Shown here: piece after piece, positions 1 through 4,219 of the stretch | Numbering within the stretch: the stretch's first letter is position 1 | How the letters are laid out: the number at the start of each line of letters is the position of its first letter | Virus record (IMG/VR): IMGVR_UViG_2778261069_000006 | Reading direction: 5' to 3' (one strand) | DNA from: a virus | Taxonomy: Duplodnaviria > Heunggongvirae > Uroviricota > Caudoviricetes | DNA length: 4,219 bases | The notes under the pieces: model-generated | What the model saw: the letters and a program-made list of their open reading frames with translations, nothing else | Databases searched by the model: none | What the model was told of the DNA's origin: nothing | Program-made: the position numbers and the translations under genes

Positions 1-2
1 CG

Positions 3-1382
3 GTATCGTTCAGGATTGCCGCACCGGCAGCGCCGTCTCGGATTGAGCTGACGCCGGGCTATTTTCAGATAACCGCCACGCCGCATCTTGCGGTTTATGA
101 CCCGACGGTACAGTTTGAGTTCTGGTTCTCGGAAAAACGGATTGCGGATATCAGGCAGGTTGAAACCAGCGCGCGTTATCTTGGTACGGCACTGTACTGG
201 ATAGCCGCCAGTATCAATATCAAACCGGGCCATGATTATTATTTTTACGTTCGCAGTGTGAACACCGTTGGCAAATCGGCATTCGTGGAGGCTGTCGGTC
301 AGCCGAGTGATGATGCATCAGGCTATCTGGATTTTTTCAAAGGCGAGATAGGGAAAACCCATCTGGCTCAGGAGCTGTGGACGCAGATTGATAACGGTCA
401 GCTTGCGCCTGACCTGACTGAAATCAGGACGTCCATAACGGATGTCAGCAATGAAATAACACAGACCGTCAATAAGAAACTGGAAGACCAGAGTGCAGCG
501 ATCCAGCAGATACAGAAGGTTCAGGTTGATACAAATAATAACCTGAACAGCATGTGGGCAGTGAAGCTGCAGCAGATGCAGGACGGACGCCTTTATATTG
601 CGGGTATCGGTGCCGGTATTGAGAACACCCCTGACGGCATGCAGAGTCAGGTGCTGCTGGCAGCAGACAGGATTGCGATGATTAATCCTGCGAATGGCAA
701 CACAAAGCCGATGTTTGTTGGTCAGGGCGATCAGATATTCATGAATGAAGTGTTCCTGAAACGCCTGACGGCCCCCACCATTACCAGCGGCGGTAATCCT
801 CCGGCATTTTCCCTGACATCAGACGGGAGACTGACGGCGAAAAATGCGGATATCAGTGGCAGTGTGAATGCGAACTCAGGAACGCTCAACAATGTCACGA
901 TTAACCAGAACTGTACGATTAAGGGCATGCTGGAGGCGACCCAGGTCAGAGGAGATTTCGTTAAAGCTGTATCAAAAGCCTTCCCGAAAAAAGTCGGTAC
1001 GTGGGGTAACACGGAAACACCAAACGGTACGGTTACAGTCACCATCAGCGATGATCATAACTTTGACCGCCAGATTATTATTCCGCCCATTATTTTTAAC
1101 GGTATAGCGTATGACGATCCGGGGAGCGGAAATAACCCAGGAGGCACGCGATACACGGGTTATGGTTTTGAAGTTCGCAAAAACGGCGTATTAATCGCAT
1201 CCAGAGAAACTAAAGGGGCCATTCCCGGTAGTTACAGTGCAGTTATTGATATGCCGAGTGGCAGGGGAAGCGTCACTCTGGAGTTTAAGATTTTCCAGAA
1301 AGGCAATCAGGGGGCAGGCAATATCACCGACTGTACGGTGATTGTGACCAAAAAAGCCGCTTCCGGCATCAGTATTCGTTGA
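3..1382 (+). CDS. J: Host specificity protein J (central tail fibre / tail tip), C-terminal part; 5'-truncated by the window edge
   Basis: The frame is open from position 3 (checked codon by codon, no stops) to TGA at 1380-1382. The track ORF 258..1382 is only the part after an internal GTG. The translation (…[42 protein letters not shown]…[27 protein letters not shown]…[27 protein letters not shown]…[17 protein letters not shown]…) matches my recollection of the lambda gpJ C-terminal region. The gene order J-lom-stf supports the call. Confidence 0.9.
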
Positions 1383-1404
1383 AATATTTATAACCCCAAT
1401 AAAG

Positions 1405-1431
1405 GGCGTCAGGAATGACGCCTTTTTTATT
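1405..1431 (+). terminator. Rho-independent terminator between J and lom
   Basis: Perfect 7-bp stem GGCGTCA (1405-1411) / TGACGCC (1416-1422) with a GGAA loop, followed by TTTTTTATT (1423-1431), 23 bp after the J stop. Confidence 0.7.
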
Positions 1432-1441
1432 GCAGAAAAGC

Positions 1442-1447
1442 GAGAGG
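1442..1447 (+). promoter_or_regulatory. Shine-Dalgarno sequence for lom
   Basis: GAGAGG lies 5 nt upstream of the ATG at 1453. Confidence 0.6.
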
Positions 1448-1452
1448 TAATT

Positions 1453-2052
1453 ATGCGTAAAGTTTGTGCAGCAATTTTGTCCGCAGCCATTTGTCTGGCC
1501 GTATCCGGTGCGCCTGCATGGGCGTCTGAACATCAGTCCACGCTGAGCGCGGGGTATCTTCATGCCTCGACGAACGTCCCCGGCAGTGATGATCTGAACG
1601 GGATTAACGTGAAATACCGTTATGAGTTTACGGACACACTGGGGCTGGTGACGTCATTCAGCTATGCAGGAGACAAGAATCGCCAGCTGACCCGTTACAG
1701 CGATACCCGCTGGCATGAAGATTCCGTTCGTAACCGCTGGTTCAGCGTAATGGCGGGGCCGTCTGTGCGCGTGAATGAATGGTTCAGCGCGTATGCGATG
1801 GCGGGTGTGGCTTACAGCCGTGTGTCGACTTTCTCCGGGGATTATCTCCGCGTAACTGACAACAAGGGGAAAAAGCACGATGTGCTGACCGGAAGTGATG
1901 ACGGTCGCCACAGCAACACGTCTCTGGCGTGGGGGGCTGGCGTGCAGTTTAACCCGACCGAATCCGTGGACATTGATATTGCTTATGAAGGCTCCGGCAG
2001 TGGTGACTGGCGCACTGACGGTTTCATCGTGGGTGTCGGTTATAAATTCTGA
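1453..2052 (+). CDS. lom: Lom outer-membrane protein (Ail/Lom/PagC/Rck family 8-stranded beta-barrel), 199 aa
   Basis: ATG at 1453 with a good SD, TGA at 2050-2052. N-terminal signal peptide MRKVCAAILSAAICLAVSGAPAWA with an AxA-type cleavage site. C-terminus …SGSGDWRTDGFIVGVGYKF ends in the terminal aromatic residue typical of beta-barrel OMPs and matches my recollection of lambda Lom. The position between J and stf is as in lambda. Confidence 0.92.
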   Translation: MRKVCAAILSAAICLAVSGAPAWASEHQSTLSAGYLHASTNVPGSDDLNGINVKYRYEFTDTLGLVTSFSYAGDKNRQLTRYSDTRWHEDSVRNRWFSVMAGPSVRVNEWFSAYAMAGVAYSRVSTFSGDYLRVTDNKGKKHDVLTGSDDGRHSNTSLAWGAGVQFNPTESVDIDIAYEGSGSGDWRTDGFIVGVGYKF

Positions 2053-2078
2053 TTAGCCAGGTAACACAGTGTTATGAC

Positions 2079-2108
2079 AGCCCGCCGGTTCAGGCGGGCT
2101 TTTTTGTG
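2079..2108 (+). terminator. Rho-independent terminator between lom and stf
   Basis: Perfect 8-bp stem AGCCCGCC (2079-2086) / GGCGGGCT (2093-2100) with a 6-nt loop, followed by TTTTTTGT (2101-2108), 27 bp after the lom stop. Confidence 0.75.
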
Positions 2109-2116
2109 GGGTGAAT

Positions 2117-4213
2117 ATGGCAGTAAAGATTTCAGGTGTACTGAAAGACGGCACAGGAAAACCGGTACAGAACTGCACAATCCAGCTGAAAGCAAAACGT
2201 AACAGCACCACGGTGGTGGTGAACACGCTGGCCTCAGAAAATCCGGATGAAGCCGGGCGTTACAGCATGGACGTTGAGTACGGGCAGTACAGCGTTATTC
2301 TGTTGGTGGAGGGATTCCCGCCGTCACATGCCGGGACCATCACCGTGTATGAAGATTCCCGACCCGGTACGCTGAATGATTTTCTCGGTGCCATGACGGA
2401 GGATGATGCCCGTCCTGAGGCACTGCGCCGTTTTGAACTGATGGTGGAAGAGGTGGCGCGTAACGCGTCAGCGGTGGCACAGAACACGGCAGCCGCGAAG
2501 AAGTCAGCCAGCGATGCCAGCACATCAGCCCGTGAGGCGGCAACCCATGCGACTGATGCTGCAGGCTCAGCACGCGCAGCCAGCACGTCAGCCGGACAGG
2601 CCGCGTCGTCGGCTCAGTCAGCATCTTCCAGCGCAGGAACGGCATCAACAAAGGCCAGTGAAGCAGCAAAAAGTGCTGCTGCTGCAGAGTCCTCAAAAAG
2701 CGCGGCAGCTACCAGTGCCGCTGCGGCGAAAACGTCAGAAACGAATGCGGCAGCGTCACAACAATCAGCAGCCACTTCTGCATCCGCCGCGACCACGAAG
2801 GCGTCAGAAGCTGCCACCTCAGCCCGGGATGCGGCGGCCTCAAAAGAGGCAGCGAAATCATCAGAAACGAACGCATCCTCGAGCGCCAGTAGCGCAGCTT
2901 CCTCGGCAACAGCGGCAGGAAATTCCGCGAAGGCGGCAAAAACGTCAGAGACGAACGCCAGGTCTTCTGAAACGGCAGCGGGACAGAGCGCCTCAGCTGC
3001 GGCAGACTCTGAGACAACAGCTGCATCATCGGCCCGTGAGGCGTCCATTAAGGCAGAGGAGGCAGCAGTCAGTGCCACCGCCGCCGGAAAATCGGCAGAA
3101 AGCGCCGCATCATCCGCTTCAACAGCCACAACGAAGGCTGGCGAAGCCACTGAACAGGCCAGCGCAGCAGCGAGGTCTGCTTCCGCAGCGAAGACATCCG
3201 AAACGAACGCGAAAGCGTCGGAAACCAGCGCAGAATCCTCAAAAACGGCTGCCGCATCGTCCGCCAGTTCGGCGGCGTCATCGGCATCATCGGCGTCTGC
3301 TTCAAAAGATGAGGCGACCAGACAGGCGTCAGCAGCGAGGGGCAGCGCCACGACGGCATCCACGAAGGCGACAGAGGCTGCTGGCAGTGCGGCAGCGGCA
3401 GCACAGAGCAAAAGTACGGCAGAATCCGCAGCAACGCGCGCCGAGACAGCAGCAAAACGGGCAGAGGATATTGCATCCGCCGTGGCGCTTGAGGATGCGA
3501 GCACGACGAAAAAGGGGATAGTACAGCTCAGTAGTGCGACTAACAGCACTTCCGAGTCACTGGCGGCAACACCAAAAGCCGTTAAGGCCGCGTATGACCT
3601 GGCTAACGGGAAATACACCGCACAGGATGCAACGACAGCACAGAAAGGGATAATCCAGCTAAGCAGCGCGACCAACAGCACGTCTGAAACGCTTGCCGCG
3701 ACACCAAAGGCAGTAAAAGCAGCCAATGACAATGCTGAGAAACGTCTGCAGAAAGATCAGAACGGTGCGGATATCCCTGGCAAAGATACCTTTACGAAAA
3801 ATATTGGTGCCTGCCGTGCCTTCGGTGGGTCAGTAAGCACAACAACAGGAAACTGGACGACTGCACAGTTTATCGAGTGGCTGGATTCTCAGGGAGCATT
3901 TAACCATCCATACTGGATGTGCAAGGGTTCCTGGTCTTATGGCAATAATAAAATCATTACTGATACTGACTGCGGTAATATTCATCTCGCCGGAGCTGTC
4001 ATTGAAGTAATGGGGATAAAGTCAGCGATGACGATCCGCATTACCACACCGACCACCTCCACTGGTGGTGGAACAACTAACGCCCAGTTTACTGCAAAAT
4101 GGCATCTGAATCGATCGCAGTTTGGCATTCGAATCGATCATGATTTGGCATTCATCTCCGATCACAGTTTGGCATCACAATCGATCACGATTTGGCATGC
4201 TTCCGATCATTGA
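2117..4213 (+). CDS. stf: Side tail fibre protein Stf: conserved N-terminal domain, Ala/Ser/Thr-rich shaft, duplicated tail-fibre motif, divergent distal tip
   Basis: ATG at 2117 is preceded by the SD-like GGGGTGA (2108-2114). The track begins at the in-frame GTG 2111, but MAVKISGVLKDGTGKPVQNCTIQLKAKRNSTTVVVNT… from the ATG matches the lambda Stf N-terminus as I recall it. The frame is open to TGA at 4211-4213. The 3' end is uncertain because the last ~115 bp lie inside a 23-bp tandem DNA repeat, so the true C-terminus may differ. Confidence 0.85.
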   Translation: MAVKISGVLKDGTGKPVQNCTIQLKAKRNSTTVVVNTLASENPDEAGRYSMDVEYGQYSVILLVEGFPPSHAGTITVYEDSRPGTLNDFLGAMTEDDARPEALRRFELMVEEVARNASAVAQNTAAAKKSASDASTSAREAATHATDAAGSARAASTSAGQAASSAQSASSSAGTASTKASEAAKSAAAAESSKSAAATSAAAAKTSETNAAASQQSAATSASAATTKASEAATSARDAAASKEAAKSSETNASSSASSAASSATAAGNSAKAAKTSETNARSSETAAGQSASAAADSETTAASSAREASIKAEEAAVSATAAGKSAESAASSASTATTKAGEATEQASAAARSASAAKTSETNAKASETSAESSKTAAASSASSAASSASSASASKDEATRQASAARGSATTASTKATEAAGSAAAAAQSKSTAESAATRAETAAKRAEDIASAVALEDASTTKKGIVQLSSATNSTSESLAATPKAVKAAYDLANGKYTAQDATTAQKGIIQLSSATNSTSETLAATPKAVKAANDNAEKRLQKDQNGADIPGKDTFTKNIGACRAFGGSVSTTTGNWTTAQFIEWLDSQGAFNHPYWMCKGSWSYGNNKIITDTDCGNIHLAGAVIEVMGIKSAMTIRITTPTTSTGGGTTNAQFTAKWHLNRSQFGIRIDHDLAFISDHSLASQSITIWHASDH
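2462..3508 (+). repeat. Degenerate low-complexity coding repeats (Ala/Ser/Thr-rich shaft of Stf, about aa 116-464)
   Basis: Strong A/S/T/E/K bias in the translation with recurring degenerate motifs: AKTSETNA, AKSSETNA, TKASEAA, TKAGEAT, TKATEAA, SAAASSASSAASSASSASAS. Coding is dominated by GCN, TCN and ACN codons, which leaves the other frames on both strands free of stops. Confidence 0.8.
3509..3598 (+). repeat. Copy 1 of the conserved phage tail-fibre repeat motif (KKGIVQLSSATNSTSESLAATPKAVKAAYD)
   Basis: Direct translation. A motif of the form GIxQLSSATNSTSE…AATPKAVK is, to my knowledge, characteristic of lambdoid/T-even tail-fibre proteins. Confidence 0.8.
3641..3730 (+). repeat. Copy 2 of the conserved phage tail-fibre repeat motif (QKGIIQLSSATNSTSETLAATPKAVKAAND)
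   Basis: Lies 132 bp (44 codons) after copy 1. The protein is nearly identical, but about half the codons differ at synonymous positions. Confidence 0.8.
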
Positions 4214-4219
4214 TTGGCA
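4097..4219. repeat. Tandem array of 23-bp imperfect direct repeats, at least 5.3 units, truncated by the window end
   Basis: GGCAT starts at 4101, 4124, 4147, 4171 and 4194, with GGCA again at 4216 (spacings 23, 23, 24, 23, 22). GATC starts at 4113, 4136, 4160, 4183 and 4205. Units: aaaaTGGCATctgaaTCGATCGcag / TTTGGCATtcgaaTCGATCAtga / TTTGGCATtcatctccGATCAcag / TTTGGCATcacaaTCGATCAcga / TTTGGCATgcttccGATCAttga / TTGGCA…. Confidence 0.85.

Follow-up and report, generated by a model that had tools for sequence, protein, structure and literature searches.

The window analysed here, i.e., the whole stretch of 4219 bp, is the entire draft contig PTRS01000140.1. From position 2117 onward it carries the 5' part of a lambdoid side-tail-fibre gene, stf, whose product matches the Pfam families phage_tail_N and Phage_fiber_2, followed by an array of tandem repeats that reaches the end of the contig. 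The coordinates of these features are collected in Table 1.

Table 1. Features at the right end of the window.
Feature	Coordinates	Strand	Sequence or remark
Lambdoid side-tail-fibre gene stf, 5' 1976 nt	2117..4092	+	truncated within codon 659 of ~1024
Presumed target site GTTTAC	4087..4092	.	presumably duplicated beyond the IS; 5-7 bp duplications in full copies
First 127 bp of the L-TIR of a very probable ISSso4-like IS21-family IS	4093..4219	+	terminal TG first
L1, terminal unit including the cleaved TG end	4093..4120	+	TGCAA-AATGGCAT-CTGAA-TCGATCG-CAG
L2, 23 bp	4121..4143	+	TTTGGCAT-TCGAA-TCGATCA-TGA
L3, 24 bp	4144..4167	+	TTTGGCAT-TCATCT-CCGATCA-CAG
L4, 23 bp	4168..4190	+	TTTGGCAT-CACAA-TCGATCA-CGA
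L5, 23 bp	4191..4213	+	TTTGGCAT-GCTT-CCGATCA-TTGA
L6, beginning	4214..4219	+	TTGGCA..., cut by the contig end
Fortuitous TGA closing the stf frame	4211..4213	+	after ~39 IS-encoded codons

The window DNA is colinear with the intact stf locus L001 as far as position 4092, and the homology to the intact stf genes of E. coli genomes and phages ends exactly at this nucleotide, the inserted sequence starting with TG at 4093. The predicted Stf residues up to 659 share 96% amino acid identity with the intact 1024-aa Stf of L001, and the similarity is absent thereafter. The array at 4093-4219 was not found in the intact stf homologues of E. coli genomes and phages. The first-pass annotation had placed the repeats at the genuine 3' terminus of stf, at the junction between the tail-fibre tip and tfa; they actually interrupt the gene at codon 659 of about 1024. 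In L001, the 3' part of stf comes after CCCAGTTTAC-CTATATTAATCACGG. The sole record found to contain the stf::IS junction is the source contig itself: no place in 5426 complete E. coli genomes covered at least 80% of the window segment 3600-4219, and the exact 34-nt junction had no match in the GTDB species-representative genomes.

The array consists of five complete units of ~23 bp and the beginning of a sixth, with the consensus [A/T]TTGGCAT-N4-6-[T/C]CGATCA. The Tandem Repeats Finder program detected arrays of period 23 at 4109-4198 (3.9 copies, score 92) and at 4135-4219, together with a double unit of period 47 at 4112-4209 (score 136). The pattern TTGGCAT-N4-7-CGATC occurs four times (at 4122, 4145, 4169, and 4192), against 0.00 occurrences expected from 200 dinucleotide-preserving shuffles, and positions 4098-4117 hold a fifth copy, the terminal one (AATGGCAT-CTGAA-TCGATCG). 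These results bear out the original observation of a tandem 23-bp array of at least five units, whose left boundary, however, is at 4093, 4 bp further out than the proposed start at 4097. The array was also correctly regarded as a repeat at the level of DNA and not of protein, the period of 23-24 bp being no multiple of three.

That the units might nevertheless encode a true C-terminal repeat in a variant Stf deserves hardly any credence. It is true that the stf frame stays open across the array up to the TGA at its end. However, besides the period, Stf offers no match to the 39 additional residues, and the RHS, traE, and acyltransferase coding sequences interrupted elsewhere likewise run open into the same IS end, which makes the open frame a property of that end. 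The ORF at 2111/2117-4213 (698-700 aa) is thus a chimera of the truncated stf and 39 IS-encoded codons.

Copies of the array exist elsewhere: the segment 4093-4219 shares 97-99% identity with the left terminus of a 2639-bp element carrying istA and istB. Matches to window positions 4085-4219 were found in 2727 of the 5426 complete E. coli genomes; in 490 of these, a match spanned 80% or more of the query. The left-end sequence occupies as many as 35 sites in a single E. coli genome, both chromosomal and plasmid-borne, within unrelated genes (fimbrial, T6SS, tra, RHS, colicin, acyltransferase, and others). At all five E. coli/Shigella loci with both ends mapped (L003, L004, L005, L014, and L015), the element is complete, with a length of 2638-2639 bp and both istA and istB. 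The full copies have TG...CA termini, the right terminus reading ...GGAATACGCA, and three copies of the left-end unit (R1-R3) lie there in inverted orientation. Target duplications of 5, 6, 6, 6, and 7 bp flank the five full copies; none was found when looked for around a related copy in Edwardsiella. The far side of the window insertion lies outside the contig, and the duplication of GTTTAC is expected from the copies elsewhere.

The proteins encoded by the full copies scored 286 bits with the NCBIfam model transpos_IS21 (cut-off 160) and 258 bits with IS21_help_AAA (cut-off 200), and contain the Pfam domains rve and Mu-transpos_C_2. The IstA protein is homologous to the structurally solved IstA of IS5376 (PDB 8B4H/8Q4D) over residues 74-373 (E = 2e-14), and is 97.5% identical to the S. 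sonnei protein named "IS21-like element ISSso4 family transposase" by PGAP, which also assigns IstB to the ISSso4 family in every full copy; the name ISSso4 used here rests on this annotation. The window shares with ISSso4 an almost identical left end over 127 bp, and the full copies elsewhere agree with ISSso4 in their length of 2638-2639 bp and their TG...CA ends. The left ends differ by a few substitutions, e.g., GGCATTCATC versus GGCATCCATC in L3, and the sixth unit reads TTGGCATCCTGCCAGTCA in the E. coli type and TTGGAATTCGCCAGTCA in the S. sonnei copy. In the papers found to name ISSso4, it figures only as an S. sonnei IS or as an ISSso4-like remnant, and its ends are described in none of them. 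No promoter or terminator was detected when the left end and istA leader of one full copy (L004, 2950-3300) were scanned.

The element thus displays the features by which the IS21 family is recognised: TG...CA ends, direct repeats of ~23 bp at both ends with those of the other end inverted, istA followed by istB downstream of the left end in the full copies, a target duplication within the range of 4-8 bp, and many copies in unrelated genomic contexts. We conclude with high confidence (a probability of roughly 0.96) that an ISSso4-like IS21-family IS has inserted into a lambdoid prophage stf gene and truncated it, that the segment 4093-4219 represents the left end of this IS, and that its units are the multiple terminal repeats, the predicted binding sites of IstA. 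Crossover sites of the invertases Gin, Pin, and Cin had also come into consideration through the position of pinQ, downstream of stf in the reference locus, and were dropped after the multicopy istAB element was found.

An iteron-like origin array, or a phage-repressor operator array native to the stf region, would resemble what is seen here in several respects. Plasmid and phage iterons, too, are helically phased direct repeats of ~20 bp to which a cognate protein binds; the present units, 22-23 bp long, share a conserved core, are phased at roughly two helical turns, and each contain GATC, as in some origins. However, the sequence is missing from intact stf regions and sits in many unrelated genes with target duplications, while inverted copies occupy the opposite end of a 2.6-kb mobile unit. 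The full copies adjoin istA/istB and an interrupted host gene, not a rep gene or an origin, and we regard the iteron proposal of the first-pass annotation, like that of an operator array, as highly improbable.

Scarcely more credible are its two other proposals, a copy-number-variable VNTR and a recombination hot-spot at the host-range junction, where tail-fibre tips would be shuffled, in spite of the tandem layout and the known mosaicism of stf. The number of units (5 + 1) and their spacing are identical in all six aligned copies, i.e., the window, four copies from E. coli/Shigella, and the one from Edwardsiella, whose IstA is only 82% identical. The best matches to window positions 4085-4219 align end to end in one piece, and the copies placed side by side show no indels, which is not the behaviour of a VNTR. 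As for a host-range hot-spot, none of the stf homologues includes the array, and the same 127 bp occur within fimbrial, T6SS, tra, RHS, and acyltransferase genes. The array thus belongs to the IS21-family end and not to the tail-fibre gene.

When followed to the right in the full copies elsewhere, the array gains just one further, degenerate unit, TTGGCATCCTGCCAGTCA, beyond the window edge. Where the Edwardsiella relative has an intact TCGATCA in this L6 unit, the E. coli copies have the degenerate CCAGTCA. The window is a complete short-read contig with its break inside a multicopy element, which is why the array runs past its edge: a stop 127 bp into a multicopy IS is typical of an assembly-graph break at a repeat and is probably one here. 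Accordingly, a full-length element presumably occupies the window site, with istA, istB, and the right end lying outside the window. The 127 bp could instead be a truncated solo left-end remnant and not a complete, potentially active element, as the sequence past 4219 lies outside the window. Remnants of this kind do occur: at L002, other IS debris truncates the left end after ~136 bp, and in L016 the element itself is interrupted by IS100. We consider this improbable at the present site, since all five E. coli/Shigella loci with both ends mapped carry the complete element and the position of the contig stop is consistent with an assembly break. The assignment of the repeats as IS21-family terminal repeats is unchanged either way.

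The array was also compared with the ends of related elements. Relative to the Edwardsiella copy, differences were found at 1 of 61 core positions and at 7 of 61 linker and flank positions (Fisher p = 0.06, not significant at 0.05); this trend is only suggestive of a better conserved core. In six more distant relatives with 42-48% IstA identity (ISPsy40, ISEc12, ISAs29, ISBmu3, and elements of T. lovleyi and A. caldus), units of ~23 bp were again present, 4-6 of them at the left end and 2-4 at the right end, each end being readable in five of the six. Their half-site sequences differ, as would be expected for transposase sites that co-evolve with their own transposase.

The IS21 terminal inverted repeats (TIRs) are described in PMC10122671 as multiple direct repeats with a 23-bp spacing. 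The IstA of IS5376 needs at least two complete repeats per TIR, and in the cryo-EM structures its HTH domains sit on R1 and R2 (PMC10122671, PMC11208146). The present ends are like those of IS21 and IS5376 in having direct repeats spaced by 23 bp, including the terminal sequence, at both ends and in inverted orientation. They are unlike them in the unrelated sequence of the units, and unlike IS5376 in the only distantly homologous IstA, in the number of units (five to six at the left end and three at the right, against two per end in the structural work) and in the target duplication (5-7 bp against 5 bp). By analogy with the IS5376 and IS21 work, and given the homology and the shared architecture, the ISSso4-like units are likely to be bound by IstA. 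The binding-site array for a DNA-binding protein suggested in the first place was therefore right in kind, with the IS21-family transposase IstA as the probable protein, although the end of a mobile element had not been recognised in it.

In the proposed mechanism, each bipartite unit, [A/T]TTGGCAT and [T/C]CGATCA separated by 4-6 variable bases, would serve as the site for the tandem helix-turn-helix domains of IstA. At the outermost repeats of the two ends, the bound IstA would assemble into a tetramer that synapses the ends, and would cut at the terminal CA/TG. The AAA+ helper IstB would then activate IstA on the target DNA, and the element would integrate, generating a short duplication of the target. 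Phage Mu (L1-L3, R1-R3) and Tn7 (TnsB sites) likewise have several asymmetric transposase sites of ~22 bp per end, and common to all three are a DDE transposase whose DNA-binding domains are arranged in tandem and an AAA+ helper (MuB, TnsC, IstB); the analogy of IS21 ends to these ends has been drawn in PMC10122671. Mu and Tn7, however, belong to other families and have other sequences, and the present element is a 2.6-kb IS without an accessory enhancer.

Two properties of the ends go beyond this scheme. The inner units L3-L6 exceed the two repeats per end required for IS5376, and GATC, the Dam site, lies inside the conserved second half-site of every functional unit (L1-L5 and R1-R3), 8 of the 12 GATC sites of the element being located within ~190 bp of its two ends. 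Dam methylation couples transposition to the passage of the replication fork in IS10, IS50, and IS903; to our knowledge, no report describes such coupling in the IS21 family. As GATC is present in every functional unit and clustered at the ends, the Dam state could modulate the binding of IstA and couple ISSso4 transposition to the replication fork, and L3-L6, situated ahead of istA, could form a regulatory sink or an array for autorepression. We consider this doubtful, and the evidence does not favour the coupling to Dam: the half-site GATC is present in ISEc12 and ISBmu3 and absent in ISAs29, ISPsy40, and the elements of T. lovleyi and A. caldus, a distribution that does not evidently follow the occurrence of Dam in the hosts.

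The element is thus a common and already catalogued IS, and repeats of this kind are already established as IstA-binding sites for the IS21 family. Direct repeats of ~23 bp that are phased and start with TG are best recognised as IS21-family ends, which avoids their misreading as iterons, VNTRs, or CRISPR-like features. The end of the contig should be taken not for a biological boundary but for a break in the assembly at a multicopy IS, and the 698-700-aa "Stf" ORF should be recognised as a chimera in annotation. For the prophage itself, the insertion means that the tip of its side tail fibre has probably been lost.

Tandem Repeats Finder detected a period-23 array at 4109-4198 of the window (3.9 copies, score 92) and another at 4135-4219; it also reported a double unit of 47 bp at 4112-4209, with a score of 136. 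The window contains four occurrences of the pattern TTGGCAT-N4-7-CGATC, at 4122, 4145, 4169 and 4192, the number expected from 200 dinucleotide-preserving shuffles being 0, and a fifth, slightly divergent copy, AATGGCAT-CTGAA-TCGATCG, is present at 4098-4117. The repeat unit is bipartite, consisting of [A/T]TTGGCAT, 4-6 variable bases, [T/C]CGATCA and 3-4 further variable bases, and the period of the array is 23-24 bp. The 23-bp repeat described by the first-pass annotation thus lies where it had been placed.

Coordinates of the genes and of the left-end repeat units (L1-L6) in the window
Feature	Position
J gene (lambdoid), 3' part	to 1382
lom	1453-2052
Side-tail-fibre gene (stf)	starts 2117
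L1 unit	4093-4120
L2 unit	4121-4143
L3 unit	4144-4167
L4 unit	4168-4190
L5 unit	4191-4213
L6 unit, initial six bases only	4214-4219

The open reading frame running from 2111/2117 to the TGA at 4211-4213 spans the entire array. When window positions 3600-4219 were compared with 5426 complete E. coli genomes by megablast, hundreds of 100% matches were obtained, all stopping at query position 493 (window position 4092), and in none of these genomes were the stf part and the array part joined. The match to phage side-tail-fibre genes likewise reaches 4092 only. Compared base by base with L001, a reference locus with an intact stf, the window is identical through ...CCCAGTTTAC and unrelated beyond. 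Its product shows 96% amino acid identity to the 1024-aa Stf up to residue 659, while the last 39 residues (KWHLNRSQFGIRIDHD...) have no match anywhere in Stf. As the similarity to stf ends abruptly at 4092, the array is neither the natural 3' end of this gene nor the stf/tfa junction, as had been proposed; it interrupts stf at roughly two thirds of its length.

Relative to L001, the J gene has a mosaic structure: window positions 1-381 are 90% identical and 704-4092 are 96.6% identical, and 382-703 gave no BLASTN alignment in a local comparison with default settings. A 9-bp tandem repeat, CGGCATCAT (2.4 copies, 3273-3294), sits inside a long low-complexity region of Stf that is rich in Ala, Ser and Thr (stf codons ~120-460). 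Beyond this region the Phage_fiber_2 motif, GI[VI]QLSSATNSTSE[ST]LAATPKAVKAA, occurs twice at residues ~462-540.

Searched alone, window positions 4085-4219 matched 2727 of the 5426 E. coli genomes; in 490 of these, the match covered 80% or more of the query. Both chromosomes and plasmids carry matches, with as many as 35 places in one genome, and the best matches are 97-99% identical. The genes under these matches are unrelated (for example fimA/sfaA, tssD, traE, colicin-10 and RHS). In the full copies at the E. coli/Shigella loci L003, L004, L014 and L015, the transposase gene istA lies ~230 bp downstream of the left-end sequence and is followed by the AAA+ helper gene istB, and the interrupted host gene picks up again beyond the element. 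The element is 2639 bp long, starts with TGCAAAATGGCAT... and ends with ...GCGGAATACGCA. Target duplications of 5, 6, 6, 6 and 7 bp were found in five copies (L003, L004, L005, L014 and L015), with the sequences CTTAT (5 bp), GTTAAT, GTAAAG and GTGTAA (6 bp) and CTCAGGC (7 bp); the flanks of the Edwardsiella copy (L006) contain no recognisable target-site duplication.

The element proteins scored 286 bits against NCBIfam transpos_IS21 (cut-off 160) and 258 bits against IS21_help_AAA (cut-off 200). IstA contains the Pfam domains rve and Mu-transpos_C_2, is homologous to the structurally solved IS5376 IstA (8B4H, 8Q4D; E = 2e-14) and is 97.5% identical to a Shigella sonnei plasmid IstA named "ISSso4 family transposase"; IstB was named "ISSso4 family" by PGAP. 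Since the family was identified from the proteins of the full copies, we conclude that the array forms the left end of an insertion sequence of the IS21 family, of the ISSso4-like type. A recombination hot-spot native to the host-range region was rejected, as no intact stf gene contains the sequence and unrelated genes do.

A coding repeat was also rejected, in agreement with the earlier view of a DNA-level repeat: the period is not a multiple of three, homology to Stf is absent, and in PGAP annotation other interrupted genes are likewise lengthened by the frame that stays open across the IS end. The open frames of the array create chimeric C-termini. PGAP annotated as intact an acyltransferase, an RHS core protein and traE whose coding sequences run into the IS left end (L014 1846-3021, L015 1-3127 and L016 2530-3057), as the window stf frame does.

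Only one recorded contig carries the chimeric 698-aa product, the 4219-bp PTRS01000140.1 of the draft assembly GCA_002965725.1, and the window is this complete contig. Its IS-derived part measures exactly 127 bp (4093-4219). The usual largest k-mer of SPAdes is 127, and a contig that abuts a repeat node has k bases in common with it. This suggests that a repeat node of the assembly graph is where the contig stops, and the window end is therefore taken as a break in the assembly at a multicopy element. That the copy in stf is a remnant rather than full-length is improbable, the element being complete in all five E. coli/Shigella loci with both ends mapped (L003, L004, L005, L014 and L015), although an isolated left-end fragment (~136 bp), bordered by debris from other IS elements, occurs in an IS-rich plasmid region (L002 3001-3140) and IS100 is nested inside an ISSso4-like istA (L016 3239-5600).

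In the full copies, the left array comprises the five good units of the window and a sixth, after which the periodicity ends; E. coli has a degenerate form of this last unit (TTGGCATCCTGCCAGTCA), the Edwardsiella relative an intact one (TTGGCATCCTGTCGATCA). The right end carries, reading inward, three units: ATTCCGCT-CTAT-TCGATCA, ATTGGCAT-CGAAGT-CCGATCA and ATTCGCAT-CCAT-TCGATCA. Unit number and spacing are the same in the window, in four E. coli/Shigella copies and in the element from Edwardsiella, whose IstA is 82% identical. The arrays of E. coli and Edwardsiella differ at 1/61 core and 7/61 linker or flank positions, which is only a trend (p = 0.06). A VNTR was rejected on the invariant unit number across the copies compared. 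An iteron or origin was likewise rejected: a rep gene is lacking, the mobile unit bears inverted copies at its other end, and the element is flanked by target duplications.

Six distant elements with 42-48% IstA identity (ISPsy40, ISEc12, ISAs29, ISBmu3 and those of Trichlorobacter lovleyi and Acidithiobacillus caldus) share this layout, with bipartite units at ~23 bp; a left array of 4-6 units could be read in five of them, and a right array of 2-4 units likewise in five. The left end of the A. caldus element is not cleanly readable because a second, divergent IS21-family istA lies directly upstream in its plasmid locus, L010 (1-1375 and 1501-3782). The half-site sequences differ from those of the window element, the units being ATTCCACG-N5-TTGGACA in ISPsy40, ATTCCGG-N6-TGAACAC in ISAs29 and TTCCGAAAC-N3-TGATCA in ISBmu3. 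Kept architecture with diverged sequence is what would be expected for sites co-evolving with their own transposase.

The terminal inverted repeats of IS21-family elements contain multiple direct repeats (L1-L2, R1-R2) ~23 bp apart; integration by IstA requires two complete repeats per pre-cleaved end, and random DNA with the terminal CA alone does not work (PMC10122671). Cryo-EM structures revealed an intertwined IstA tetramer in which R1 is occupied by the HTH domains of the catalytic subunits and R2 by those of the structural ones, with the two ends held as right-handed crossings (PMC10122671). IstA is activated by IstB on bent target DNA, and the multiple terminal repeats were proposed to hold the transposase autoinhibited until IstB binds (PMC11208146). 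From the IstA homology and identical architecture, we infer that the TTTGGCAT-N5-CGATCA units are putative IstA sites of the ISSso4-like element, of which L1 would bear the cleaved end. The binding-site array suggested earlier would thus be right in kind, as protein-binding DNA; its assignment to stf was wrong.

GATC is present in every good unit. The 2639-bp element contains 12 such sites, eight of them in the two ends; its base composition predicts ~10 overall. In a Dam-positive host the end sites will be methylated, and an effect on IstA binding is conceivable, a modestly interesting possibility. Methylation effects at GATC have precedents in IS10 and IS50. As GATC is patchy among the relatives (in the half-sites of ISEc12 and ISBmu3; absent from those of ISAs29, ISPsy40 and the T. 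lovleyi and A. caldus elements), it may be no more than a variant form of the recognition half-site.

The repeat array is an already known feature of a catalogued insertion sequence. For annotation, this means that stf in the window is a pseudogene disrupted by an IS and that the end of the contig is an assembly artefact.
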